Positions 3,292 through 58,975 of a stretch of DNA of 64,000 nt are shown one piece after another. Position 1 is the first letter of the stretch; each line of letters opens with the position of its first letter. Under the pieces are notes generated by a model. That model saw only the letters and a program-made list of their open reading frames with translations. It searched no databases and was not told the DNA's origin. The stretch is from a virus (Duplodnaviria > Heunggongvirae > Uroviricota > Caudoviricetes): the IMG/VR virus record IMGVR_UViG_3300008113_000007, positions 1 to 64,000 of that record; one strand, given 5' to 3'. The translations under genes and the position numbers were made by a program.

Positions 3292-3300
3292 AATATATAA
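3292..3300 (+). promoter_or_regulatory. late-promoter-like AATATATAA box 4 nt upstream of the ATG at 3305
   Basis: Identical motif and spacing as at 74-82. Confidence 0.4.
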
Positions 3301-6258: not shown

Positions 6259-6284
6259 AAGACCCGTAAGGGTCTTTTTCTTTT
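6259..6284. terminator. bidirectional rho-independent terminator between the convergent gp55-like and GS genes (gaccc-gtaa-gggtc plus a T-run)
   Basis: Hairpin flanked by an A-run and a T-run. Confidence 0.6.
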
Positions 6285-7341
6285 AGTCTTCAATTAGAAC
6301 ATCGTCCGTGAGTATCGTCCTGACAATCCTCTCTACTACTAGGTAAGGATCTGCGTTCGATGCTGGCCTTCTATCCTCGATGTATCCTATCGCGTCAGCC
6401 TCGTTGATTGTCGACGGTATCCTAATCGACTTTGTCCTGTCCGCTATTCCCCAGCCGAAGTCCGTTATAGACGAAGTCTCGTTCGCACCGGTGAGCCTTG
6501 CCTCGTTGTTCTCGCCGTAGACTGCTATGTGCTCTGCGTGCCTTCTCGAAAGCTTCTCGCACATCTCTATTGCAATCTCCTTTTTGTTGACCTTGTCCTC
6601 TCTTATGGTCTTGGTCGAGAAGTTCACGTGCATTCCGGACCCGTTCCATCTCTCTCCCTCGAACGGCTTAGGATCGAGCTCTATCCTGTAGTCGTACTTC
6701 TCGCTCAGCCTGTGCAGTATGTATCTCGAAATCCACAGCTGGTCGGCTCCTTCCTCTGCCGTGACCGTTCCTACCTGGTACTCCCACTGGCCGAGTGCGA
6801 CCTCTGCGTTTATACCAGATACAGATATACCTGCCTTGATACATAGGTCGGCGTGCTCTTCTACGAATTCTCTACCTGAAACGTTGTTTCCGCCGACACC
6901 GCAGTAGTATTCGCCTTGCTCCCTAGGCTCGCCGTTCCATCCGAGTGGAAGTTCTGTCTTGTTGTCGAATATGAAGTACTCCTGCTCCCAACCGTACATT
7001 GTCTCGTCGTCGTTCTCACTGAGTATGTCTATCATCGCCGCCCTTGTGTTTGTCTCGTGTGGAGTTCCGTCCATGTTGTAGACTTCGCACAGCACGATTA
7101 TTCCGTCTTTCACGAACGGGTTGAGGAAGTAGTTCTTCGGAACCAACGCCAGCTCCGATTTGGAAGTCTCTGCCTGGTAGGTAGACGATCCGTCGAAGTT
7201 CCAGTTTGAAGCGGACTGCTTGCCCGATTTGAACTGTCTCAGTAGCTCTTCTGTGTCCCACGATGATTTTACAATCTTCGTCTTTGATCTTAGTTGCTGT
7301 GGTTTTGCACCATCAAGCCACACATACTCTAGTTTTTTCAT
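6283..7341 (-). CDS. glutamine synthetase, type II (eukaryote-like GSII) or a related gamma-glutamyl ligase
   Basis: GS signatures 'GEYYCGVGG' (GS 'G.YYC.VG'), ATP-binding 'KPFEGERWNGSGMHVNFSTK', 'VALGQWEYQVG', C-terminal 'SIRIP' arginine region; ~350 aa is typical of GSII. Confidence 0.85.
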   Translation of the reverse strand: MKKLEYVWLDGAKPQQLRSKTKIVKSSWDTEELLRQFKSGKQSASNWNFDGSSTYQAETSKSELALVPKNYFLNPFVKDGIIVLCEVYNMDGTPHETNTRAAMIDILSENDDETMYGWEQEYFIFDNKTELPLGWNGEPREQGEYYCGVGGNNVSGREFVEEHADLCIKAGISVSGINAEVALGQWEYQVGTVTAEEGADQLWISRYILHRLSEKYDYRIELDPKPFEGERWNGSGMHVNFSTKTIREDKVNKKEIAIEMCEKLSRRHAEHIAVYGENNEARLTGANETSSITDFGWGIADRTKSIRIPSTINEADAIGYIEDRRPASNADPYLVVERIVRTILTDDVLIED

Positions 7342-7804: not shown

Positions 7805-8143
7805 ATGGTTGATTTATTCTACGCGGCACTGGTCGCTTTCGCGCTCAACGAGTTCTTTTTCGTTTTCAACAGGAAGCGTCTCGACACGAACTTCAAGAAC
7901 AAAGACGTCATGTCGGTCAAGAGGATAGATGTACTGCACTACATGCTGAAGGTGCTTTCCGTGTTTTGGCCGTTCATCGGTCTCATGTCCTCGATGTGGT
8001 CTATGTTTCTTGTGTTGATTTCTGTGTGGTTTCTGAAGTTTTTGCTTTACCACATCAGTGTTCGCACATACTCTGTCTGGACGATATTCTCTCCTTTTGT
8101 GAACATCGCTCTGTACCTTGTGATATTCTTCCTCAGACGTTGA
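7805..8143 (+). CDS. small hydrophobic/membrane protein, hypothetical
   Basis: Several predicted TM-like hydrophobic stretches. Confidence 0.4.
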   Translation: MVDLFYAALVAFALNEFFFVFNRKRLDTNFKNKDVMSVKRIDVLHYMLKVLSVFWPFIGLMSSMWSMFLVLISVWFLKFLLYHISVRTYSVWTIFSPFVNIALYLVIFFLRR

Positions 8144-8660
8144 ATCTCTTGAGGTTCTCCTCCGTGATTATTATGAACTCGAAGCCCTTCTTGTTGCACC
8201 ACTCGATCATCGTCTCCCACTTGCTCTTGTTCTTGTAGGCCATCTTCAGGTCGTACTCGAAGCCCTTCAGCTTCTTCGTTCCTTTCTCCGGTACCTGCAG
8301 TTTACCCTCTGTGAGTGCTATCACCATGTTGTACTCCTTCTGTGGCTTTACCTCGACGACGACCTCCCTGAGTACGCCGTCAGAGCTTCTCATCCTGTAG
8401 AAGAAGTCCGGGTAGTACCTGTGAGACTTGACCCTTGCGTCTCCGTTGTCGAAGTGTGTCATCTGGTAAGGTATCTCAAGGCATTCTGCCCCCCATTGTA
8501 TTATCTCGGGCTTGAGGTCGAGCCAGACCATTATCTTCTTCTCCCAGGAGCTCCTGAAGTAGACACCGCCTTGCGAGTTAAGTTTCAGAACCTTGTCTTT
8601 GTTCTTGGGTATGTAGTTTCCTGAGTTGTAGCTTGAGTTCGACGGTCTGGAGTTTATCAT
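8133..8660 (-). CDS. PD-(D/E)XK nuclease-fold protein (TnsA/endonuclease-like)
   Basis: '...YYPDFFYRM...GVLREVVVEVKPQKE' matches a PD...(D/E)xK arrangement; upstream 'SSWEKKIMVWLD...IPY' resembles TnsA/Vsr-type N-terminal modules. Confidence 0.45.
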   Translation of the reverse strand: MINSRPSNSSYNSGNYIPKNKDKVLKLNSQGGVYFRSSWEKKIMVWLDLKPEIIQWGAECLEIPYQMTHFDNGDARVKSHRYYPDFFYRMRSSDGVLREVVVEVKPQKEYNMVIALTEGKLQVPEKGTKKLKGFEYDLKMAYKNKSKWETMIEWCNKKGFEFIIITEENLKRFNV

Positions 8661-9958: not shown

Positions 9959-11701
9959 ATGGCCTCTTATAACTATTTCAATAACAACAATAACAACAAC
10001 CAGGCGTTCGGTATTCAGAACTCCGGTGAGAACAAAGGCTTCTTCAACCGTATACTGAGGAACCTGTCGAACCACGGTATGAACTATGACGACATGATCA
10101 TTCGCAATCAGGTCGGTGTTGGAATAAACGAGGATCCTTACGCATCTAAAGGAAATTCGATGTATGATTTCTTTAGTCAACGAGCAGTGGCGTCGGTTCT
10201 CGGCCGCAAGTCCGTTCCGTATCTTGATCGTTCGTATCCCGACAAGAGGAGAATACTGAGAGAGTACTCGATTAAGGACGAGATCAGGGACTTCGTGAGC
10301 CAGGTGGCCGACGAGTGTGTGGTTTACAACGATGACAGGGATTTCTGCTCTGCGCGCGCTCTTTCCACCGGATACAGCAAGGAGATACAGGACAAATACC
10401 TCGAGTACTTTGAAAGGATATACAACAAATACGGCTTCTCTGACAGTGTCACGGCTTTCAACCTGATAAAGGACTTCCTAATCGACGGGTACGTTGCTAT
10501 GGAGATAGTCTACGATGACAAGAAGAAGAACATAATCGCTTTCAACCGACTGAGACCTGAGACCATCGTCCCTGCATACGAGCCAAACGTGGGTCATCTA
10601 TGGATACAGTATCCTGAGGATCCTCAGCTCAGAAGGATTTTTCTCGACTCTCAGATAGTTTTCATATCTTACTCTACTCAGAACGACTTCTCAGAGACTT
10701 CCTACGTGGAAGGTCTCATCAAGCCATACAACCAGCTGAAGATACTCGAGCAGACGAAGATAATGTTCAACATCATCAACGCGACGCTCTACCAGGAGTT
10801 CAAGATTCCAATCAAGGGTCTTTCCAGGCAGAGGGCAGAGGAGCAGATTGGTCAGCTGATACACGACTACTCCGAGGAGGTCGAGTGGGACGACACTCTG
10901 GGAACGCTGACAATCAACGGTTCTAAGCACCTTCCGTTCAACAAGCAGATTTGGTTTCCTGAGGGCGACGCTGGATCGCCGTCGATGGAACTTAAGTCTC
11001 CGCAGGGTCACGACCTCAACGAGGACGGTATGCTTAAGTGGTTCCACCAGGCGCTCAAAAGGGCGTCTAAGATACCTCTGAACCGATTCGAGGGCGAGGC
11101 CGGCGGTGGTAACCTCATAACTGACGCGGCCGAGATGACGCGCGACGAGATAAAGTTCCACAACTTCATCGGAAGACTACGTGCCAACTTCAAAGAATTG
11201 ATAGTCAAGCCTTTGAAGCTACAGCTGCTTATAGAGTTTCCTGAACTTATAGATGACGATAAATTCCTAAACGAGGTAGACATCGAGTTCTACTCGAACC
11301 AGGTATTCGAGGAGTGGAAGAAACTTGGTAACCTTGAGAAGAAAGCCGGTATAGTCGGAACGCTACTTGGTGTTATGAACGGTGAGAAGCCTTACTTCCA
11401 CATCGAGTGGATTATGGACAACGTATTCAAGTTGTCTCCTGAAGAGAAGGCCGAGAACGCAAGATACTGGGCCAAGGATCCAACTGCGGCCGGTTCGGCG
11501 CCTGAAGGCGGTGGTGAGGCGGGTGCTCAAGGCGGCGGCGGCGGTGGCGAGATGGGTGCCCAAGGTGGTGGCGAAGCTCCTGCACAGGGAGGTGCTCAGG
11601 CTCCTCCTGCCGAGGGTGGTGGCGAGGCTCAGGCTCCTCCGGCACAGGGAGGTGCTCAGGCTCCTCCGGCACAAGGCGGTGGTGGCGAGTTCGAGTTCTA
11701 A
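9959..11701 (+). CDS. portal vertex protein (T4 gp20-like) with a poly-Asn N-terminal tract and a Gly/Ala/Gln/Pro-rich C-terminal low-complexity extension
   Basis: 'QVADECVVYNDDRDF' versus T4 'EIVSDAIVYEDDTEV'; 'PYNQLKILEQTKIMFNI' versus 'PANQLKLLEDAVVIYRI'; 'WFHQALKRASKIPLNRF' versus 'WFRQALYMALRVPLSRI'; C-terminal '...EFEF' like T4 '...EDF'. Confidence 0.9.
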   Translation: MASYNYFNNNNNNNQAFGIQNSGENKGFFNRILRNLSNHGMNYDDMIIRNQVGVGINEDPYASKGNSMYDFFSQRAVASVLGRKSVPYLDRSYPDKRRILREYSIKDEIRDFVSQVADECVVYNDDRDFCSARALSTGYSKEIQDKYLEYFERIYNKYGFSDSVTAFNLIKDFLIDGYVAMEIVYDDKKKNIIAFNRLRPETIVPAYEPNVGHLWIQYPEDPQLRRIFLDSQIVFISYSTQNDFSETSYVEGLIKPYNQLKILEQTKIMFNIINATLYQEFKIPIKGLSRQRAEEQIGQLIHDYSEEVEWDDTLGTLTINGSKHLPFNKQIWFPEGDAGSPSMELKSPQGHDLNEDGMLKWFHQALKRASKIPLNRFEGEAGGGNLITDAAEMTRDEIKFHNFIGRLRANFKELIVKPLKLQLLIEFPELIDDDKFLNEVDIEFYSNQVFEEWKKLGNLEKKAGIVGTLLGVMNGEKPYFHIEWIMDNVFKLSPEEKAENARYWAKDPTAAGSAPEGGGEAGAQGGGGGGEMGAQGGGEAPAQGGAQAPPAEGGGEAQAPPAQGGAQAPPAQGGGGEFEF

Positions 11702-11719
11702 GAAACCTCATCATACTGA

Positions 11720-11747
11720 AAAAGACCTCAATAGAGGTCTTTTTTTA
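11720..11747. terminator. bidirectional terminator (agacctc-aata-gaggtct plus a T-run) between the portal gene and a convergent minus-strand gene
   Basis: Perfect 7-bp hairpin flanked by A and T runs. Confidence 0.6.
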
Positions 11748-12194
11748 TGCGGCTTTGTCGCTTTTTGGGTGGTCGAAGTAAAGCGTCTTGTGACCTCGTT
11801 TGTTGTCGTAGTACCTGACCTTCACGTCCAGTCCTTCGTCGAGTATCGTCTTGATTGTTTGTCCAATTTGGCTAGGCAGGATCTCACCTGATATTTTCAC
11901 CTCGAGGATCTGCTCGTCCTTTATTATGAAGCTGATTGTGTCCGTCCTGAACGCTGCATTGTGTATGTACTGGATGGCGTCCGTGTTAGTGTATACGAGC
12001 AGGTTGGCATCTTCGATGTCGAACTGAACCTTCTTTCCCTGGTTTAGAAGCCCGGTGATCCTGACCTCTCTTTTGAACTCGGCCCACTGTTTGTACCTTC
12101 TTAGCATGCTCTCGAAGGATTCCAGGGTGATGCCTTCCTCGAGCTCTACATCGAAGGTGCTTACAACCATATCTCTTTCCTTCAGCTTTCCCAT
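11745..12194 (-). CDS. hypothetical protein, translationally coupled to the upstream RNase gene
   Basis: Start codon overlaps the stop of the 12194..14092 gene. Confidence 0.45.
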   Translation of the reverse strand: MGKLKERDMVVSTFDVELEEGITLESFESMLRRYKQWAEFKREVRITGLLNQGKKVQFDIEDANLLVYTNTDAIQYIHNAAFRTDTISFIIKDEQILEVKISGEILPSQIGQTIKTILDEGLDVKVRYYDNKRGHKTLYFDHPKSDKAA

Positions 12195-14092
12195 CAGTTG
12201 AACTTTATGAAGTCAATCTGTTTTTTCTCTAGGTCCACGGACTTGATGACGATCTTGATTGGATCGCCTAGCCTTATCTTTTCGCCGAACTCGTTCATCA
12301 CGGCGTAGCTGTCAGGATAGGCAGTCCATTTTCCGCCCATTTCCGAGATTCTTATCATTCCCTCGCACTTGCTCTCCGTGAGCTCTACGTAGATTCCTCT
12401 CTCGAGTACGCCTGATACGATTCCGTCGAACACCTGTCCGATTCTGTCCTGTAGGTACTCCGCCTGCTTGTACTTCACCGAGTCTCTCTGTGCCTTCGTC
12501 GCTACGACCTCCTGCTTGGAGATCCATTCGCACTGCTTGTCCAGCTCGCCGTGGTTTATCTCTTTGTTGTAGCCTTCTGCGTTGAGCGCCTTCGAGAGAA
12601 GTCTGTGTGCGAGTATGTCACTATACCTCCTTATTGGTGATGTGAAGTGTGAGTAGTGTTGGAACCCTAGTCCGTAGTGTCCGATGTCTTTGGTCGAGTA
12701 CTTCGCCTTCTGCTGAGCCCTTATGATTAGGGTGGTTATGATGTTCTCCTCTGGTGTTCCTTTGGAGTCTCTCATAAGCTGGTTTATGGCCAGCTTGGTC
12801 TTCTCTGCTGAGTTTCCGTAGTTTATCATATAGCCAAGCCCGGAGATGAAGGTCTTCACGTGCTCTAGCTTTTCCTCTGCTGGCTCTTCGTGTATCCTGT
12901 TCACGCACGGAAGGTGCCTAGACTTTATGAAGCGCGCGACCTCCCTGTTGGCGAGTAGCATGTACTCCTCGATGAGGTGGTTGGCGTCCTTCTGTTCCTT
13001 AAGGTAAACGCCAACCGGCTTCTTCCCGTCTCCGTCGAGTTTGAACTTGACCTCTACCCCGCCGATTTCCATCGAGCCTCCGTTCATCCTTCTCTTCCTC
13101 ATCTTCTTTGCCAGTCGGTCTAGCTCGAGTATGGCCTTCTCTGTGTCTAGCTCGGCGTTGCCTCTCTCGATTACCTCCTGTGCCATCTCGTATGAGAAGT
13201 CTTTGTCGACCCTTACCGCGGTTCTTCCGAACCAGCTGTCCTCTATCCTACCGTCGTTGTTCAACTCGACTATGACTGAGTAGCACAGCTTGTCACTTCC
13301 GGATTTCAGTGAGCATATTCCGTTTGATAGCTTGTGTGGTATCATCGGCACGCACCTGTCAACTAAGTAGACGGAGCTGGAGCGCTTGTACGCCTCTTTG
13401 TCTAGTTCGCTTCCCGGCCTTACGTAGTGTGATACGTCTGCTATGTTTATTGCGATTAGTCTTCTTCCGTTCTCGAAGTGTAGAGAGATTGTGTCGTCCG
13501 CGTCCTTCGAGTCGTGAGGGTCAATACCGATCGTGGTCCACGACCTTATGTCTCTCCTCTTCTTTATCTCCGACTCCGGTATGACCTCTGTTATGAGCTC
13601 CGCCTCGTTCAGTACTTCCTGCGGGAAGTCGATAGGTAGGTTGTATTCGTACATTATGGCGTTCATTTCCGTCTCGTTCTCGCCTTTCAATCCCAGTACT
13701 TTGGTTATCCTTCCTCTCGGAGATTTCTTTTCCTTTTCCCAGTCGATCATCTCGACGATGACTTTCTGGCCATCCTGTGCTTTGTGGTCTCCTTTGATGT
13801 AGAAGTCGACGACCATCTTCGGGCTGTCTGGGACAACGAAGGTGTGGTTCTTGCTAACCTGTGCAGTTCCTACGAAGGTCGTCTTGAACCTCTCTAGCAC
13901 GTCGACGACCTTCGCCTCCATTTTGCGTTCGCCTTTGAACAGAACTGCCCTGACCTTATCGAGGTGCAGGGCGTTGGCGGTCTTCTTCTTGTGCACGAAG
14001 AACTCTCTTTCGTCGATTTTGATTGTTGCGTTACCGGAACCGGTGAACTCTATCTGGGCCTCTATCGTGTCGCCCTCTGTGTATTTACTCAT
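12194..14092 (-). CDS. RNB-family 3'-5' exoribonuclease (RNase R / RNase II-like) with N-terminal OB/cold-shock domains and a C-terminal S1 domain
   Basis: RNB motif I 'IDPHDSKDADDTISL'; catalytic 'HYGLGFQHYSHFTSPIRRYSDILAHRLL'; C-terminal S1-like 'GQVFDGIVSGVLERGIYVEL'. Confidence 0.85.
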   Translation of the reverse strand: MSKYTEGDTIEAQIEFTGSGNATIKIDEREFFVHKKKTANALHLDKVRAVLFKGERKMEAKVVDVLERFKTTFVGTAQVSKNHTFVVPDSPKMVVDFYIKGDHKAQDGQKVIVEMIDWEKEKKSPRGRITKVLGLKGENETEMNAIMYEYNLPIDFPQEVLNEAELITEVIPESEIKKRRDIRSWTTIGIDPHDSKDADDTISLHFENGRRLIAINIADVSHYVRPGSELDKEAYKRSSSVYLVDRCVPMIPHKLSNGICSLKSGSDKLCYSVIVELNNDGRIEDSWFGRTAVRVDKDFSYEMAQEVIERGNAELDTEKAILELDRLAKKMRKRRMNGGSMEIGGVEVKFKLDGDGKKPVGVYLKEQKDANHLIEEYMLLANREVARFIKSRHLPCVNRIHEEPAEEKLEHVKTFISGLGYMINYGNSAEKTKLAINQLMRDSKGTPEENIITTLIIRAQQKAKYSTKDIGHYGLGFQHYSHFTSPIRRYSDILAHRLLSKALNAEGYNKEINHGELDKQCEWISKQEVVATKAQRDSVKYKQAEYLQDRIGQVFDGIVSGVLERGIYVELTESKCEGMIRISEMGGKWTAYPDSYAVMNEFGEKIRLGDPIKIVIKSVDLEKKQIDFIKFN

Positions 14093-16873: not shown

Positions 16874-18589
16874 ATGTCACACATTAGAATAGACAAGGCG
16901 AAAGCCACTAAAAAGTGGGCACCGGTTCTCGAGAACATGGGTGTCACAGGTGATAGAGTAGAATGGATGGCGGAGTACGCTGAGTTCCACTCAATCAACG
17001 AGAACGCGTATGTAAACGCTTCTAACGTAGGCGGTATGGGCGCTGTATTGAACCCGGTTGTTGGTGACCTCGCAGGTAACCCAAGAACAGGTAACGTACT
17101 TTCACCAGTTGCTGGTTCAGGTGACGTAGGTCAAAACCTTCTTCCAGTTGCGATGAAGATTGCAGCTCAGACTATCGGTCTTGACCTCGTAGCTGTTAAG
17201 CCGTCTCCAGGTCCGAAAATCGACCTTCTTTACATCGACTTCCAATACGACGATGTTAGGTCTACAGACGGAACTGACGAGAGACCACAGGTGTTCAAAA
17301 TCAAATTGAGCTCTGATGACATGATCAAAGTAAAAGACACTGTTACTAAATTTGTTGGTAACGCAGTTCTTACTACTGGCGGTCTTACAAGTGGTAGACT
17401 TTTCGTAGACAACATTCAAGGTAGCTCTGATCTTAAGACTACTGAGTCTGCTGCTGCTCTTGCTACTACTAAGTACAAAAAACTCGAGTTCCTCGGATAC
17501 TCAAGGGTAGACGGTTACCCAATGTTCAGAGCTTGGAGACAAGACAACACAGCTCACACTGCTACTGGTGTTGCTGCCGCATCTACTCGTGCTTTCTGGT
17601 CTTTCGATCAAACAAGAAACACGTTCAACCCAACACAGTCTATGGCTGATCAGATTTCGTACATCGGTACTGCGTCTGTAACACCACAAGAGATTCAGTT
17701 GATTTCTGCACTTGAAGACCACATCCCTGGTTTCTCTGCAAACTGGACAGCTAACATCTCTTCTGGAGACTACCCAATGAACAGGAAACAAGATGACGAT
17801 TCTTACGCTGGTGTTATCGGACCTAAGATCTCTTCTAAGACTATCCAAGTTGGTACTATCGAGGTATCTTCTGCACTCAGAAGAACTGAGATTGAGGACA
17901 TCAAAGCTAACACAGGTATGGACATCGTACAAAAGATGGAATCTATCCTCGTGAACGAGCTTTCCCAAACTATCTCTAAGCAAATCGTCGCTAAGATTTT
18001 CGAAATGGGTGACCTCAACAGAACATCTGCACCTGCATTCGGTGGAAGTGCAACTATCACTGGTCACACAATCTTCGACCTTGACACAGCATACGCTTCT
18101 GGTGGTTCCCTTGGTGGTGAGACTACTCACGCTGTACAAAGGAAGCTTATCACTAAGATAGCTCACGCTTCTAACTTCATCGCGACTGAGGGTCGTGTAG
18201 GTCCTGCTCAATACCTTATCACAAACGGAGGTCTTGCTGCTGCTCTACAAGACATCGCTGGTTACACAATCAACCCAGTGAAATCTAAACTCAACGGACA
18301 AGGTCAGCTTTATCCAGTTGGTTCAATAGGCGACATCGCTATCTACGTTGACCCATACATGAGATACAACGACAACAGAATCGTCCTTGGTAGGAAGAAC
18401 AACCCTGATCAACCAGGTATCATCTTCGTTCCTTACCTTATGGCACAATCTATCTCAGTTATTTCTGAGGCGACTTTCGCACCAAGAATGCTCTTGAGAT
18501 CTAGATATGCTGTTGCAGAAGTTGGTTGGTTCCCACAAAAACAATTCATGACTATCCAAGTAAGAGATGTAGCTCAATTGCTCAACTAA
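16874..18589 (+). CDS. major capsid protein (T4 gp23-like)
   Basis: 'KATKKWAPVLENMGV' versus T4 gp23 'KAELLNKWKPLLEGEGL'; 'LLPVAMKIAAQTIGLDLVAVKPSPGP' versus 'IGPAVMGMVRRAIPNLIAFDICGVQPMNSP'; 571 aa; lies downstream of the protease/scaffold gene as in T4. Confidence 0.9.
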   Translation: MSHIRIDKAKATKKWAPVLENMGVTGDRVEWMAEYAEFHSINENAYVNASNVGGMGAVLNPVVGDLAGNPRTGNVLSPVAGSGDVGQNLLPVAMKIAAQTIGLDLVAVKPSPGPKIDLLYIDFQYDDVRSTDGTDERPQVFKIKLSSDDMIKVKDTVTKFVGNAVLTTGGLTSGRLFVDNIQGSSDLKTTESAAALATTKYKKLEFLGYSRVDGYPMFRAWRQDNTAHTATGVAAASTRAFWSFDQTRNTFNPTQSMADQISYIGTASVTPQEIQLISALEDHIPGFSANWTANISSGDYPMNRKQDDDSYAGVIGPKISSKTIQVGTIEVSSALRRTEIEDIKANTGMDIVQKMESILVNELSQTISKQIVAKIFEMGDLNRTSAPAFGGSATITGHTIFDLDTAYASGGSLGGETTHAVQRKLITKIAHASNFIATEGRVGPAQYLITNGGLAAALQDIAGYTINPVKSKLNGQGQLYPVGSIGDIAIYVDPYMRYNDNRIVLGRKNNPDQPGIIFVPYLMAQSISVISEATFAPRMLLRSRYAVAEVGWFPQKQFMTIQVRDVAQLLN

Positions 18590-18639: not shown

Positions 18640-18648
18640 AATATATAA
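18640..18648 (+). promoter_or_regulatory. late-promoter-like AATATATAA box 4 nt upstream of the ATG at 18653
   Basis: Same motif and spacing as at 74-82 and 3292-3300. Confidence 0.4.
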
Positions 18649-21263: not shown

Positions 21264-22208
21264 ATGATAACTACAATTCTGGTCATAGTGGCCTTGGCCT
21301 TTGCTGCCTACAAAATCATCACTGGTATCCAGACGATACAGGGTGCAGGTTACAACAACAAAACACAGGAGGCGGAAGGTCGAAAGTCCGTCACGATCGG
21401 TATTGTAGGTGGGGTAGGTATTATTATCTTCGCCTTCATACAGCCTTTCTCGATTGAGAGGGTAGACGCGGGACACGTCGGGATCAAGGTGAACCTTACA
21501 GGGGACAACAGGGGCGTCTCGAAGTACCAGTATAAGACAGGATGGGTCGTTTACAACACCTGGACGGAGAACCTGTACGAGTTCCCGACGTTCCAGCAGC
21601 ACATCGAGTTCGACCAGCAGCAGGTCATCACAAAAGGTGGCTTCCCGGCTGACATCAAGCCTTCTTTCAACTACTCGTTGAAGCCTACCGCGGTCGGCGA
21701 CATGTTCGTGAACCTTCGACTCCCTATCAAGGACGTAGAGCAGGGTTGGCTTAAGAACGCGATTGTCGGTGCAGTGAACGACGTCGCTAACACCTGGGAG
21801 GTCGACTCCATCTTCGGTCACCGCCAGGCATTCGAGACTGCCATCGTGAACGAGTGCAACATACGTCTTTCTAAATGGTTCGCCGTTTCTCAGATGAGAT
21901 CTAACATCGTCCCGCCTGAGGCATTACAGGAGGCAATCGTTGCCAAAACGAGATCTGTTCAGCAGGCAGAGGCGTCGAAGCAGCAGGCTTTGGCTGCACA
22001 GGCAGACGGACAGCGCAAGATTGCCGTTGCGAAGGCTGACTCCGCAGAGACCGTAATCAACGCGTCGGCGAAGGCGAAGGCGATGGAGCTTACGCAGCAA
22101 AAGCTTACTCCTCTTTACGTAGAGTACAAGAAGGTTGAGAAATGGGACGGCCACAACTCAAGCACCGTACTTGGCAACGGCAGCAACACGTTGGTAAACG
22201 TAAAATAA
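21264..22208 (+). CDS. SPFH/Band-7 (stomatin/prohibitin/HflK-like) membrane protein
   Basis: N-terminal TM helix followed by a Band-7-type core ('GHVGIKVNLTGD...') and an Ala/Gln-rich coiled-coil C-terminus 'QQAEASKQQALAAQADGQRKIAVAKADSAE'. Confidence 0.7.
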   Translation: MITTILVIVALAFAAYKIITGIQTIQGAGYNNKTQEAEGRKSVTIGIVGGVGIIIFAFIQPFSIERVDAGHVGIKVNLTGDNRGVSKYQYKTGWVVYNTWTENLYEFPTFQQHIEFDQQQVITKGGFPADIKPSFNYSLKPTAVGDMFVNLRLPIKDVEQGWLKNAIVGAVNDVANTWEVDSIFGHRQAFETAIVNECNIRLSKWFAVSQMRSNIVPPEALQEAIVAKTRSVQQAEASKQQALAAQADGQRKIAVAKADSAETVINASAKAKAMELTQQKLTPLYVEYKKVEKWDGHNSSTVLGNGSNTLVNVK

Positions 22209-22216
22209 CACATATT

Positions 22217-22253
22217 CAATCGGGCGGGTTGCCCTGCCCGATTGAACTTTTTT
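22217..22253 (+). terminator. rho-independent terminator (caatcgggc...gcccgattg plus a T-run)
   Basis: 9-bp inverted repeat followed by TTTTTTCG. Confidence 0.6.
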
Positions 22254-22269
22254 CGTTCTTTGATTATAA

Positions 22270-22278
22270 TATATAACA
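22270..22278 (+). promoter_or_regulatory. AATATATAA box immediately upstream of the tmRNA-like gene
   Basis: Same motif as upstream of the structural genes; about 10 nt before the GGGG 5' end. Confidence 0.35.
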
Positions 22279-22288
22279 AACACACAAC

Positions 22289-22660
22289 GGGGATGTCATG
22301 GATTCGCCTAGCGGAATACAGGTAGTTGTGCAGGTATCGGGTTGTCGAATGTCCGATTAACAAATTAGACGGCGAACTGTCGTAAATGGCAAAACAAATG
22401 AAGTAGGAACCCGTGAAGACTTAGTAGCGGCCCTCGCAAAGATCGGCTCTAAAGAGCTCGAGTTGGCGTAGAAATATACCGACGAACAAAAATTCTCCAA
22501 GCTGTCCCGCGCAGTCCACAAATGCGGAACCAGATTGTTAGAGTGATGGGTCAGTTCAACTAACTATTTTGTGAGCTTCGAAAAACTCTCTAAGCCTGTG
22601 AACGAGCACCTATTGGTAGCCGATTAGTACATCGGGGTCAGTGCCCGATCATCTCCACTA
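22289..22660 (+). ncRNA. ssrA: tmRNA (ssrA)-like gene, one-piece
   Basis: 5' 'GGGGAUGUCAUGGAUUCGCC' versus the E. coli tmRNA 5' 'GGGGCUGAUUCUGGAUUCGAC'. 3' T-arm-like 'UCGGG-GUCAGUG-CCCGA' followed by 'UCAUCUCC', which pairs with the 5' 'GGGGAUG' to give a 7-bp acceptor stem with one G-U pair. ~372 nt with no protein ORF; own terminator downstream. The 3' end reads ACUA rather than ACCA. Confidence 0.55.
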
Positions 22661-22696
22661 AAAAAAACAAGCCCTCGTAAGAGGGCTTTGTTGTTT
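22661..22696 (+). terminator. rho-independent terminator after the tmRNA-like gene (aagccctc-gtaa-gagggctt plus a T-run)
   Basis: Perfect 8-bp hairpin plus TGTTGTTT. Confidence 0.65.
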
Positions 22697-23006: not shown

Positions 23007-23495
23007 ATGATAAACAGCTTCAGCGGAAGATACAGCTTCCTTTCCAACTTCTACCCGTGCAAGATTTTGCACCAGGGCATAACGTACCCCTCGGTCGAGC
23101 ACTTCTACGTCGCGATGAAGTGCAACGGCCCGCAGCAGATGAACGGCGTGCAGTACACCCCTATTGACTTCCGTGAGATGCTCGCGCGAATACCGGAGCC
23201 CGGTGTCGTCAAGAAAATAGGCAACAAGATAGTTCTCAGAAAGGACTGGGACGACAAGAAGCTGGAGTTCATGAACTGGGCGGTTCGTGAGAAGTTTTCG
23301 GACAACAAGCTGGCTGAGTTACTTCTCATGACCGGCGACGAGCCACTCGTCGAGGGGAACAACTGGCGAGACACGTTCTGGGGAGTGTGCGACGGCAAGG
23401 GCCAGAACCACCTAGGTAAGATACTGATGCAGGTCAGGGACGAGCTTCGCGGAACGCAGAGGACCGGCCTGGAGGCTGTGCTAGGTCTTAGGTAA
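23007..23495 (+). CDS. NADAR (YbiA-like, DUF1768) family protein
   Basis: 'FLSNFYPCKI...YPSVEHFYVAMK...WGVCDGKGQNHLGKILMQVRDEL' matches NADAR signature blocks. Confidence 0.75.
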   Translation: MINSFSGRYSFLSNFYPCKILHQGITYPSVEHFYVAMKCNGPQQMNGVQYTPIDFREMLARIPEPGVVKKIGNKIVLRKDWDDKKLEFMNWAVREKFSDNKLAELLLMTGDEPLVEGNNWRDTFWGVCDGKGQNHLGKILMQVRDELRGTQRTGLEAVLGLR

Positions 23496-23549: not shown

Positions 23550-24482
23550 ATGAGCGTTATCAGTTATTTCGGTGGCAAGGCCGCCTTCCAATCATTCATA
23601 ACCCCAAATATTCCATTTGAGGAGTGCACAACCTACCTAGAGCCGTTCTCCGGGTCGTTCGCGATCTACCTCGATTCCAAGATGGAGTTCAACACCGTGG
23701 TCTTCAACGACCGTAACAGGCACCAGGCGAACCTGATGAAGTGTTGCTCGGAGCCAGAGAAGTTTCTTCCTGTTTTGAAGGCTCTTCTCGCACCAGGTAA
23801 CAGGCTGCACTGCACCGCGACGTCTGTGGACGACAAATGGGACTTCTATAAGGCAATCTATAGGGAGTACGTACAAAACGACTTCCTGGACGATATGAAC
23901 TTCGAGATTGGTGATATGGACAAGGCCGCGATGTACGCGTTCCTGATTACATCGTCTTTCTCTAGCGTCTACCCTCGCGGCGGTGGCTTCACAGGCTATA
24001 AGAAGAAGAAGGACAAGCTGAACCTCAGCATACTCATCAACAAGCTCGAGAAGAACAAATACACCGAGCGTCTGAAGAAAATCACAGAGTTCCACAACAT
24101 GGACTTCGAGGAGGTCATCCGCAAGTACGACTCTGAGGACACATACATCTACCTTGACCCGCCATACGCTCGTTTCAACGAGGTGAAGCAGGACGACGAC
24201 GGCAGGAGGCTTTTCTGGTACGGATGCGACGACGAGAACGCGTTCGGGGTTGCGTCTCACAGGAGGCTTCTCGAGCTTCTGAAGACTACTAAGTCGAGAT
24301 GGTCGTTGTCCTACTACTACTTCCCTTTGCTCGAGGAGATTCTTCCGAAGGACAAGTACATCTGGACGTCTAAGGAGTTCCACAGACCTTCTGCGGTCAT
24401 CAAGACTGAGGGCGTCGAGAAGGAGAAGGGCATCGAGCTGCTGATTATGAACTACGATCCTGAAACAGGAAAAAGAGTTTAG
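23550..24482 (+). CDS. dam: DNA N6-adenine methyltransferase (Dam/D12 class)
   Basis: N-terminal SAM-binding motif 'SYFGGKA' (Dam motif X/I region) and catalytic 'YLDPPYA' (DPPY). Confidence 0.8.
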   Translation: MSVISYFGGKAAFQSFITPNIPFEECTTYLEPFSGSFAIYLDSKMEFNTVVFNDRNRHQANLMKCCSEPEKFLPVLKALLAPGNRLHCTATSVDDKWDFYKAIYREYVQNDFLDDMNFEIGDMDKAAMYAFLITSSFSSVYPRGGGFTGYKKKKDKLNLSILINKLEKNKYTERLKKITEFHNMDFEEVIRKYDSEDTYIYLDPPYARFNEVKQDDDGRRLFWYGCDDENAFGVASHRRLLELLKTTKSRWSLSYYYFPLLEEILPKDKYIWTSKEFHRPSAVIKTEGVEKEKGIELLIMNYDPETGKRV

Positions 24483-31945: not shown

Positions 31946-31988
31946 CTTCGTTTTTTCTTTTATATATTACGAAAGTGGCCTTCTTCCT

Positions 31989-38528: not shown

Positions 38529-38550
38529 AAGATATACTCTTTTTTGAGGT

Positions 38551-38560
38551 TATATATTAA
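38551..38560 (-). promoter_or_regulatory. late-promoter-like box (minus strand reads TTAATATATA) upstream of the giant fiber gene
   Basis: Motif family; ~23 nt upstream of the start. Confidence 0.35.
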
Positions 38561-49028: not shown

Positions 49029-49069
49029 TCCTTATATATTAACTATCATGAGTCTAGCCCTGCATTTAT

Positions 49070-49081
49070 TAATATATAAAC
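49070..49081 (+). promoter_or_regulatory. TAATATATAAAC late-promoter-like box upstream of the 49098 gene; a mirror-orientation box at ~49031-49044 serves the minus-strand fiber operon
   Basis: Divergent arrangement of the motif family. Confidence 0.35.
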
Positions 49082-49487: not shown

Positions 49488-49504
49488 AATTGAATATATA
49501 AGTC

Positions 49505-58942: not shown

Positions 58943-58975
58943 GACGTAATTTTTATTTTATATATTATTTTGCAA

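Follow-up and report, generated by a model that had tools for sequence, protein, structure and literature searches.

A stretch of 64,000 nucleotides (nt) from a virus of the Caudoviricetes (IMG/VR record IMGVR_UViG_3300008113_000007, positions 1 to 64,000; hereafter the window) carries an ssrA-like gene at 22289-22660 on the plus strand. The gene probably encodes a functional one-piece transfer-messenger RNA (tmRNA) of a large T4-like phage, one that would perform trans-translation during infection. An original prediction had proposed a tmRNA at this site, and the identity is supported by an acceptor stem, a long helix (P2), two pseudoknots (PK1 and PK2), a tag reading frame and a T arm, together with covariation in 29 homologs. 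The segment begins at 22289 with GGGGATGTCATGGATTCGCC. It had been described as free of open reading frames (ORFs), and only ORFs of fewer than 60 amino acids (aa) overlap it; each element ascribed to it is found in its place. The RNA is ~370 nt long, similar to the Rfam tmRNA model RF00023 (374 positions), and the mature form is probably 22289-22657 with CCA added after transcription.

Match to the tmRNA model

In the E-value mode of Rfam, RF00023 matches 22289-22660 over model positions 1-374 of 374 with 33.4 bits, and the posterior probabilities of the alignment are high at both termini. This is the sole match at E <= 0.01 when the whole 64 kb is compared with 4227 families, and with an E-value of 1e-09 the resemblance to tmRNA is therefore not a matter of chance. 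Could a structured non-coding RNA of some other class, or a gene for a small protein, still look like a tmRNA by coincidence? The window has no match at the curated gathering thresholds of Rfam, which is in favour of such a coincidence, but the model is matched from end to end, the G3:U70 pair of the acceptor stem is universal, and the 27-codon tag frame, which has neither its own start codon nor a ribosome-binding context, sits exactly where the tmRNA model puts the tag. In addition, two more distant relatives on phage contigs (L083 and L100), apparently a sister lineage, are called tmRNA by ARAGORN and pass the Rfam gathering score, L083 with 79.5 bits on RF00023. A chance resemblance is thus effectively refuted.

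Homologs and synteny

A blastn search against phage records gave two partial matches, to the unannotated metagenomic phage genomes LR745206.1 (634,780 bp) and LR756502.1 (642,428 bp). Genomes of more than 634 kb have been placed in the 'Mahaphage' clade, with predicted Bacteroidetes hosts (Al-Shayeb et al., 2020, PMC7162821), and the sizes of the two genomes lie within that class. Pattern scans of IMG/VR followed by nhmmer raised the number of full-length homologs to about 50, the two large genomes included. Twenty-nine distinct homolog sequences make up the alignment, termed A2, on which the covariation and tag counts below are based; the closest relative of the window sequence is L003. A scan of viral contigs with the 16-mer CTAAGCCTGTRAAYGA returned mostly chance matches and also brought in the sister lineage.

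The gene occupies one conserved locus. The order is a gp23-like capsid gene, a conserved ORF, the tmRNA gene, sometimes an ORF of 95 aa, a NADAR gene and a Dam methylase gene. Some 45 loci share this synteny, and their capsid proteins have about 70-90% identity with that of the window. Is there a bacterial source, or a copy in a host? When 185,579 bacterial species genomes were scanned for a signature pattern, 10 matches resulted, none of them homologous, and an origin from a host genome is not supported. An attP-type ssrA fragment of a temperate phage was also considered and is ruled out, as the gene is complete and syntenic in a structural region of the lytic, T4-like type.

Secondary structure and covariation

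RNAalifold applied to A2 recovers the acceptor stem, the long P2, the first stem of PK1, a hairpin in the tag region and the T arm, with compensatory changes in 25 of 51 pairs. Scans of column pairs extended this by three pseudoknot stems, namely the second of PK1 and the two of PK2, and by another hairpin in the tag. In the resulting structure of 70 pairs, pseudoknots included, 95.0% of the cells in A2 are paired, as against 35-47% in controls with the partners slid by 1-3 columns. Change on both sides is seen in 39 of the 70 pairs, none of 500 column shuffles reaches any of five measures, and compensatory pairs are present in every helix, with the exception of the base of P2, which is invariant.

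The long helix P2 is formed by 22308-22335 and 22594-22627 (23 pairs as helices 2 and 3, 97-100% paired, 8 compensatory). PK1 (22336-22373) lies just ahead of the resume codon. Its first stem pairs AUCGG (22336-22340) with CCGAU (22353-22357) and its second GUCG (22344-22347) with CGGC (22370-22373); they are 100% and 94.7% paired, with compensatory changes in 2/5 and 3/4 pairs. PK2 (22502-22527) likewise consists of two stems, CUG (22502-22504) with CAG (22512-22514) and CCGC (22507-22510) with GCGG (22524-22527), and these helices 9 and 10 have 3/4 and 4/4 compensatory pairs. At the position of PK3 there is a hairpin, P8 (22537-22564, GUUAG ... CUAAC), with 19 distinct stem sequences among the 29 homologs. 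The position of PK4 is taken by the hairpin P10 (22571-22590, GUGAG-CUUCGAAAAA-CUCUC, followed by a near-invariant UAAGCCUG), where 16 distinct 5-bp stems occur and 4 of 5 pairs are compensatory.

Four copies of a short motif, UUAG, occur in the family, one following PK1 and the others in the loops of a tag hairpin, of P8 and of P10 (A2 columns 81-85, 138-142, about 277-281 and about 317-320; window about 22365, 22421, 22540 and 22578). A single near-invariant CUAAG stands ahead of the 3' strand of P2 (A2 columns 334-338, window about 22590). The recurrence suggests alternative pairings or a shared protein-binding motif.

Might the gene be a decaying, non-functional relic of a captured bacterial ssrA? 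Its score below threshold in both standard detectors and its degenerate T loop would fit such decay. The compensatory changes make it very unlikely, with 39 of 70 pairs so changed and 95% of cells paired. The same locus is also kept in about 50 contigs with capsids only about 70-90% identical, the signature pattern found no similar gene in the bacterial genomes scanned, and no frameshifts, stops or broken helices, the marks of decay, are seen among the homologs. The comparison of the window with L003 illustrates the point at the scale of single codons. Window GGC TCT AAA GAG corresponds to GGT TCG AAA GAA in L003; all the changes are synonymous, and they preserve base pairing, a C-G pair of the second tag hairpin having become U-A.

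The tag reading frame

The tag frame encodes GKTNEVGTREDLVAALAKIGSKELELA in 27 codons, from GGC at 22388 to GCG at 22468, and is followed by the stop TAG at 22469-22471; the resume context is UAAAU (22383-22387). The frame that had originally been read here was correct, as the Rfam alignment and ARAGORN, the latter after an in-silico repair of the T arm, both pick it. The resume codon had been left unplaced. The RF00023 alignment sets the consensus resume codon (model consensus UAAuU|GCa) on GGC 22388-22390, a glycine codon, directly after UAAAU.

How well is the frame conserved? All 29 sequences keep the equivalent frame open over 27-29 codons, whereas in the other two frames a stop mostly comes within 2-8 codons, and indels in the tag region are multiples of three. 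Of the codon pairs that differ, a share of 0.257 is synonymous in the tag frame, compared with 0.072 and 0.102 when the frame is shifted, and the tag frame has no internal stops where the shifted frames have 140 and 62. The resume codon is GGC in 23 sequences, GGA in 5 and GAC in 1, and the stop is TAA in 27 and TAG in 2. The last residue is valine in 21 of the 29, with all four codons used, and alanine in 8. A short alternative tag frame, GCA AAA CAA AUG AAG UAG, was rejected, since it is not conserved.

The region is constrained in a second way. A hairpin inside the tag frame (22411-22430, CCGU / GCGG, helix 7) is 96.6% paired with compensatory changes in all four pairs; 11 of the 12 positions of its loop, GAAGACUUAGUA, are invariant in the family, most relatives having GAU for the GAC of the window. 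Helix 8, the second tag hairpin, also covaries, and there is little or no variation in the stretches GAAGUAG and GAAGAUUUAGUA. The tag region is therefore constrained both as RNA and as coding sequence.

The tRNA-like domain

The 7-bp acceptor stem that had been proposed is present, G3:U70 included: GGGGAUG (22289-22295) pairs with CAUCUCC (22650-22656), which is followed by the discriminator A (22657) and CUA, to 22660. Across the 29 sequences 98% of the cells of its seven pairs are paired, position 5 being A-U, G-C, C-G or G-U. G3 (22291) and U70 (22654) are kept, with the discriminator A, in every homolog inspected, and these are alanine identity features; the few exceptions in the count table are artefacts of two rows whose 5' ends are out of register by two columns.

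Next to the acceptor strand lies the D-loop-like segment UCAUGGAUUCGC (22296-22307). A GG as in UGGAUUCG, with no D stem, is found in the window and only in part in the family, as the GG is kept only in the window and L003, and most relatives have AG (AUAGAAU). The T-arm-like hairpin of the original prediction is also there (22631-22649), in a non-canonical form: a 6-bp stem, AUCGGG / CCCGAU, with the 7-nt loop GUCAGUG, which is not of the TΨC type. About 4-5 of the six pairs are compensatory, with an A-U pair on one side and a G-C pair on the other that are both invariant. The loop reads GGCAGUA in most relatives, and the family form is G[G/U]CAGU[A/G].

The two loops appear to vary together. 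D-loop GG (22301-22302; A2 columns 14-15) co-occurs with U at T-loop position 2 (22638; column 382) only in the window and L003, and nearly all other members combine D-loop AG with G at T-loop position 2. This may be a tertiary covariation between D-loop and T-loop, resting on a single evolutionary event. A further member, L074 (7280-7628, minus strand), has an intermediate character, with a tag of the window-family type, a T loop nearer to the canonical one (UUCGAU, one base short) and a shortened PK2/P8 region; ARAGORN still fails on it.

Departures from canonical tmRNA

Several findings weigh against a functional tmRNA. The first concerns detection. ARAGORN, recommended as a check on the original prediction, returned no tRNA or tmRNA gene anywhere in the 64-kb window, and nothing in any locus of the family, L001 and L002 included. 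The Rfam search, recommended likewise, gave the end-to-end match described above, yet its 33.4 bits fall below the gathering score of 47. RF00023 does not see the LR756502 homolog, and E-value mode found nothing in the whole of L001 and L002 (12.7 kb); the L002 gene taken alone gave only a partial alpha_tmRNA match of 15.6 bits.

The second concerns structure. Neither column-pair scans nor the folding of each sequence revealed second stems for PK3 and PK4, so that of the pseudoknots expected only PK1 and PK2 covary in both stems, the PK3 and PK4 positions holding covarying hairpins. The T arm has its extra base pair and a loop without the U54, U55 and A58 of TΨC; it could affect the binding of EF-Tu or SmpB and the packing of the D-loop against the T-loop. 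The tags end in ELELA, LATV and LAVA types, which are non-polar and differ from ...ALAA, and the atypical LELA ending noticed at the outset in the window tag is real. The conservation of the tag frame is, moreover, partly at the RNA level. Finally, CCA is not encoded, and an SmpB gene is absent from the 64-kb window.

How much of the failure of detection is due to the T arm? Swapping it in silico for a 5-bp stem with a UUCGAAU loop suffices for ARAGORN to call the window gene, with an identical tag frame. Among the 29 sequences, this swap alone rescues only the window and L003; with a GG D-loop added, 5 of the 29 are detected, always with the same tag frame. With so few members rescued, the others must therefore deviate in further ways, and the window copy is the most canonical member of the family. 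Standard annotation would miss this tmRNA gene.

The 3' end and SmpB

The window RNA ends in ACUA rather than ACCA, as first noted (A-CTA at 22657-22660). Among the 29 sequences the encoded end is ACAA in 21 and ACUA in 8, and ACCA in none. The tRNA genes of LR745206, the 635-kb phage, follow the same pattern, as CCA is encoded in 0 of 59 and 51 of 59 end in N-C-A-A. The lack of CCA in the tmRNA is thus a convention of the whole lineage and not a defect, and it implies that the 3' ends of both the tRNAs and the tmRNA depend on post-transcriptional addition of CCA by a CCA-adding enzyme.

Where would the protein partner come from? An ORF of 149 aa at 11745-12194 (minus strand), about the size of SmpB, immediately follows an RNase R-like gene in the window; it has no Pfam match, and tblastn with an approximate Escherichia coli SmpB query gave nothing credible. 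Both LR745206 and LR756502 encode a full-length SmpB with the C-terminal tail intact (PF01668, E 1.6e-52 and 1.8e-49). The sequence of LR745206 was reassembled whole before scanning. In the complete genome ARAGORN finds 59 tRNAs and no tmRNA, and the A2 profile matches in a single place, 204891-205274, which leaves this RNA as the sole candidate partner of the LR745206 SmpB. The RNA and an SmpB gene likewise occur together on two IMG/VR contigs, 476 kb and 483 kb in length. The family is probably the missing partner of the SmpB encoded by those phages. The SmpB of the host would also be present.

A different role is conceivable for such a molecule, that of a tmRNA-derived decoy whose tRNA-like domain binds SmpB (or AlaRS/EF-Tu) without tagging, so that trans-translation of the host is inhibited or titrated. 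Precedent comes from mycobacteriophage DS6A, which has an RNA consisting of the tRNA-like domain only; molecules like it act as inhibitors of tmRNA, perhaps through titration of SmpB (Hudson et al., 2014, PMC4131195), and the non-canonical T arm and D-loop would suit this role. A decoy needs no reading frame, however, and here the frame, the position of the stop and the resume context are kept in 29 of 29 sequences with an excess of synonymous change. The pseudoknots of the mRNA-like function, PK1 and PK2, covary as well, and blocking the pathway would be at odds with the intact-tailed SmpB that the lineage itself encodes. With frame, PK1 and PK2 all kept, a decoy is unlikely.

Proposed course of trans-translation

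For a functional tmRNA the following course may be envisaged from the features of the sequence. The RNA would be transcribed as a unit of its own, between two terminators, from an A/T-rich box common to neighbouring genes. The 5' leader would be removed, presumably by RNase P, and the 3' trailer trimmed and CCA added, as for the tRNAs of the phage itself. Host AlaRS could charge the product with alanine by way of G3:U70 and the discriminator A. The charged RNA would bind SmpB, most likely a phage-encoded SmpB elsewhere in the genome, and enter the empty A site of stalled ribosomes. Translation would then resume at GGC (22388), so that alanine plus GKTNEVGTREDLVAALAKIGSKELELA would give a tag of 28 residues, and stop at UAG. 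The predicted outcome is a freed ribosome and a marked truncated protein.

What might the fate of the marked protein be? A more elaborate proposal is that trans-translation is private to the phage. The altered tRNA-like domain (a 7+6 bp acceptor/T helix, a non-TΨC loop and AG in the D-loop) would have co-evolved with the phage SmpB and possibly with other translation factors of the phage. Instead of serving as a simple degron of the ClpXP type, the conserved tag of 27-29 residues (core NEV..EDLV.AL) would be a signal for some other partner, e.g. a phage protease or adaptor, or would spare phage proteins from host proteolysis. This proposal is speculative and has perhaps a modest chance of being right.

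Relation to known tmRNAs

The family shares the main features of bacterial one-piece tmRNA (RF00023): the 7-bp acceptor stem with G3:U70 and discriminator A, a D-loop-like segment without a D stem, a long P2, a T arm adjoining the 3' acceptor strand, PK1 directly before a resume codon in a U-A-A-N-N context, and a short tag frame with an in-frame stop, followed by further structured elements. It differs from bacterial tmRNA in the T stem (6 bp; canonical 5), in a loop that is not of the TΨCRANN / UUCGAAU type, in the AG that replaces D-loop GG in most members and in the unencoded CCA. The tags of 27-29 residues start with Gly (Asp in one) and have V or A at the end in place of ALAA, the tag frame contains two conserved hairpins, and simple hairpins occupy the positions of PK3 and PK4. 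Mycoplasma-type tmRNAs have tags of about 27 residues, as against 10-11 in most bacteria. They are thus similar to the family in tag length, but there is no sequence relationship, and their T arms are canonical.

The sister sequences L083 and L100 bear on the origin of the family. They share with it a nearly identical segment from P10 to P2 (UAUUUUGU...GAAAAA...CUAAGCCUGUGAAUGAG) and an ACAA/ACUA 3' end with no CCA. Their tags, DVELSTMTFEDAMSFVGADYAIAA and ANVELSTMTFEDAMSFVGVDLAVAA, are also long (24-25 aa), with a common ...ED... core and a LAVA-type ending, and in L083, as in the window, a Band_7 gene lies upstream. They differ in having a canonical 5-bp T stem with a UUCGAUU/UUCGAAU loop, features lost in the window family. 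Sister sequences with canonical T arms indicate that the window family is a derived branch of an ordinary phage tmRNA lineage.

Phage tmRNAs as such are already known. Genes have been described in the mycobacteriophage Bxz1 group and in Bacillus phage G (PMC4131195), in Melnitz and in about 2.3% of phage genomes, two-piece forms included (PMC9004378), and in huge phages together with SmpB and many tRNAs (PMC7162821). Like the window gene, these are complete genes in lytic phages with large genomes, but they were found with ARAGORN or an equivalent, to which the window family is invisible. Because ARAGORN misses it, the family has most likely gone uncounted in earlier surveys, the two published genomes of more than 630 kb included. 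The novelty lies in a derived family whose T arm is non-canonical and whose tags are long; it escapes both standard detectors and occupies one conserved locus across a clade of very large T4-like phages.

The family is of interest on several counts. Phages of the Mahaphage clade (>630 kb, the largest known) encode SmpB, and the RNA family would fill the tmRNA gap seen in LR745206, so that such phages would carry a complete core ribosome-rescue system of RNA and protein; in the window an RNase R-like nuclease is encoded nearby. There is a blind spot in annotation, in that surveys based on ARAGORN and Rfam undercount phage tmRNAs, and a covariance model specific to the family would improve the annotation of huge-phage genomes. 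The family also constitutes a natural experiment, in which the tRNA-like domain and the tag drift while pairing and frame stay selected, and it bears on the question of which T-arm features the tmRNA-SmpB interaction truly needs.

Transcription signals

The upstream box named in the original prediction, AATATATAA, is present at 22268-22276 on the plus strand, its 3' edge 12 nt ahead of the mature 5' end. It overlaps a promoter-like region (22242-22276, plus strand) composed of TTGAAC (22242-22247), 17 nt and TATAAT (22265-22270), which matches the sigma-70 pattern at 10 of 12 positions. The box occurs 10 times in the window, with 0.21 expected, and always just upstream of ORFs: at 74-82, 3292-3300, 18640-18648, 22268-22276, 49071-49079 and 49493-49501 on the plus strand, and at 31960-31968, 38550-38558, 49032-49040 and 58958-58966 on the minus strand. 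Its predicted role is that of a promoter. It could be a late-type promoter that gives near-leaderless mRNAs, or a translation-start element; the latter role is possible because five copies, beside structural genes, end 3-4 nt ahead of an ATG. Upstream of the homologs an A/T-rich motif of the ATATTATATATA type is conserved, often followed by TAcaTTTG, which resembles the Bacteroidetes -7 element.

A terminator-like hairpin, AAGCCCUC-GUAA-GAGGGCUU followed by UGUUGUUUAA, lies downstream of the gene (22669-22696, plus strand; terminator scan). The terminator had been called perfect, which is too strong a word: the hairpin itself (22669-22688, an 8-bp GC-rich stem with a GTAA loop) is there, but the T-run is interrupted (TTTGTTGTTT). 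An A-run ahead of the hairpin makes it appear bidirectional, and homologs have a different GC-rich hairpin with a T-run at the corresponding place. On the upstream side, the same scan finds an intrinsic terminator at 22215-22246 (plus strand, a 14-bp hairpin with a T-run). As this second terminator closes the preceding gene, the tmRNA segment looks like a separate transcription unit.

Neighbouring genes

By protein domain matches the window represents the structural module of a T4-like phage, with genes for the portal gp20 (9959-11701) and the gp23-like major capsid protein (16874-18589) and, in the same structural region, a gp15-like gene. The gene directly upstream of the tmRNA, and closed by the terminator at 22215-22246, encodes a Band_7/SPFH protein (21264-22208, plus strand, E 8e-17). 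The RNase R homolog reported at 12194 is a real gene (12194-14092, minus strand), placed between the portal and capsid genes; its product is an RNase R/II-like protein with an RNB domain (PF00773, E 2e-99) and cold-shock (CSD2) and S1 domains. The enzyme might act in synergy with the tmRNA, as was suggested. Accessory genes are interspersed in the structural module. They include those for a glutamine-synthetase-like protein (6283-7341, minus strand), a TnsA-like endonuclease (8133-8660, minus strand), a NADAR-domain protein (23007-23495, plus strand) and a Dam-type methylase (23550-24482, plus strand).

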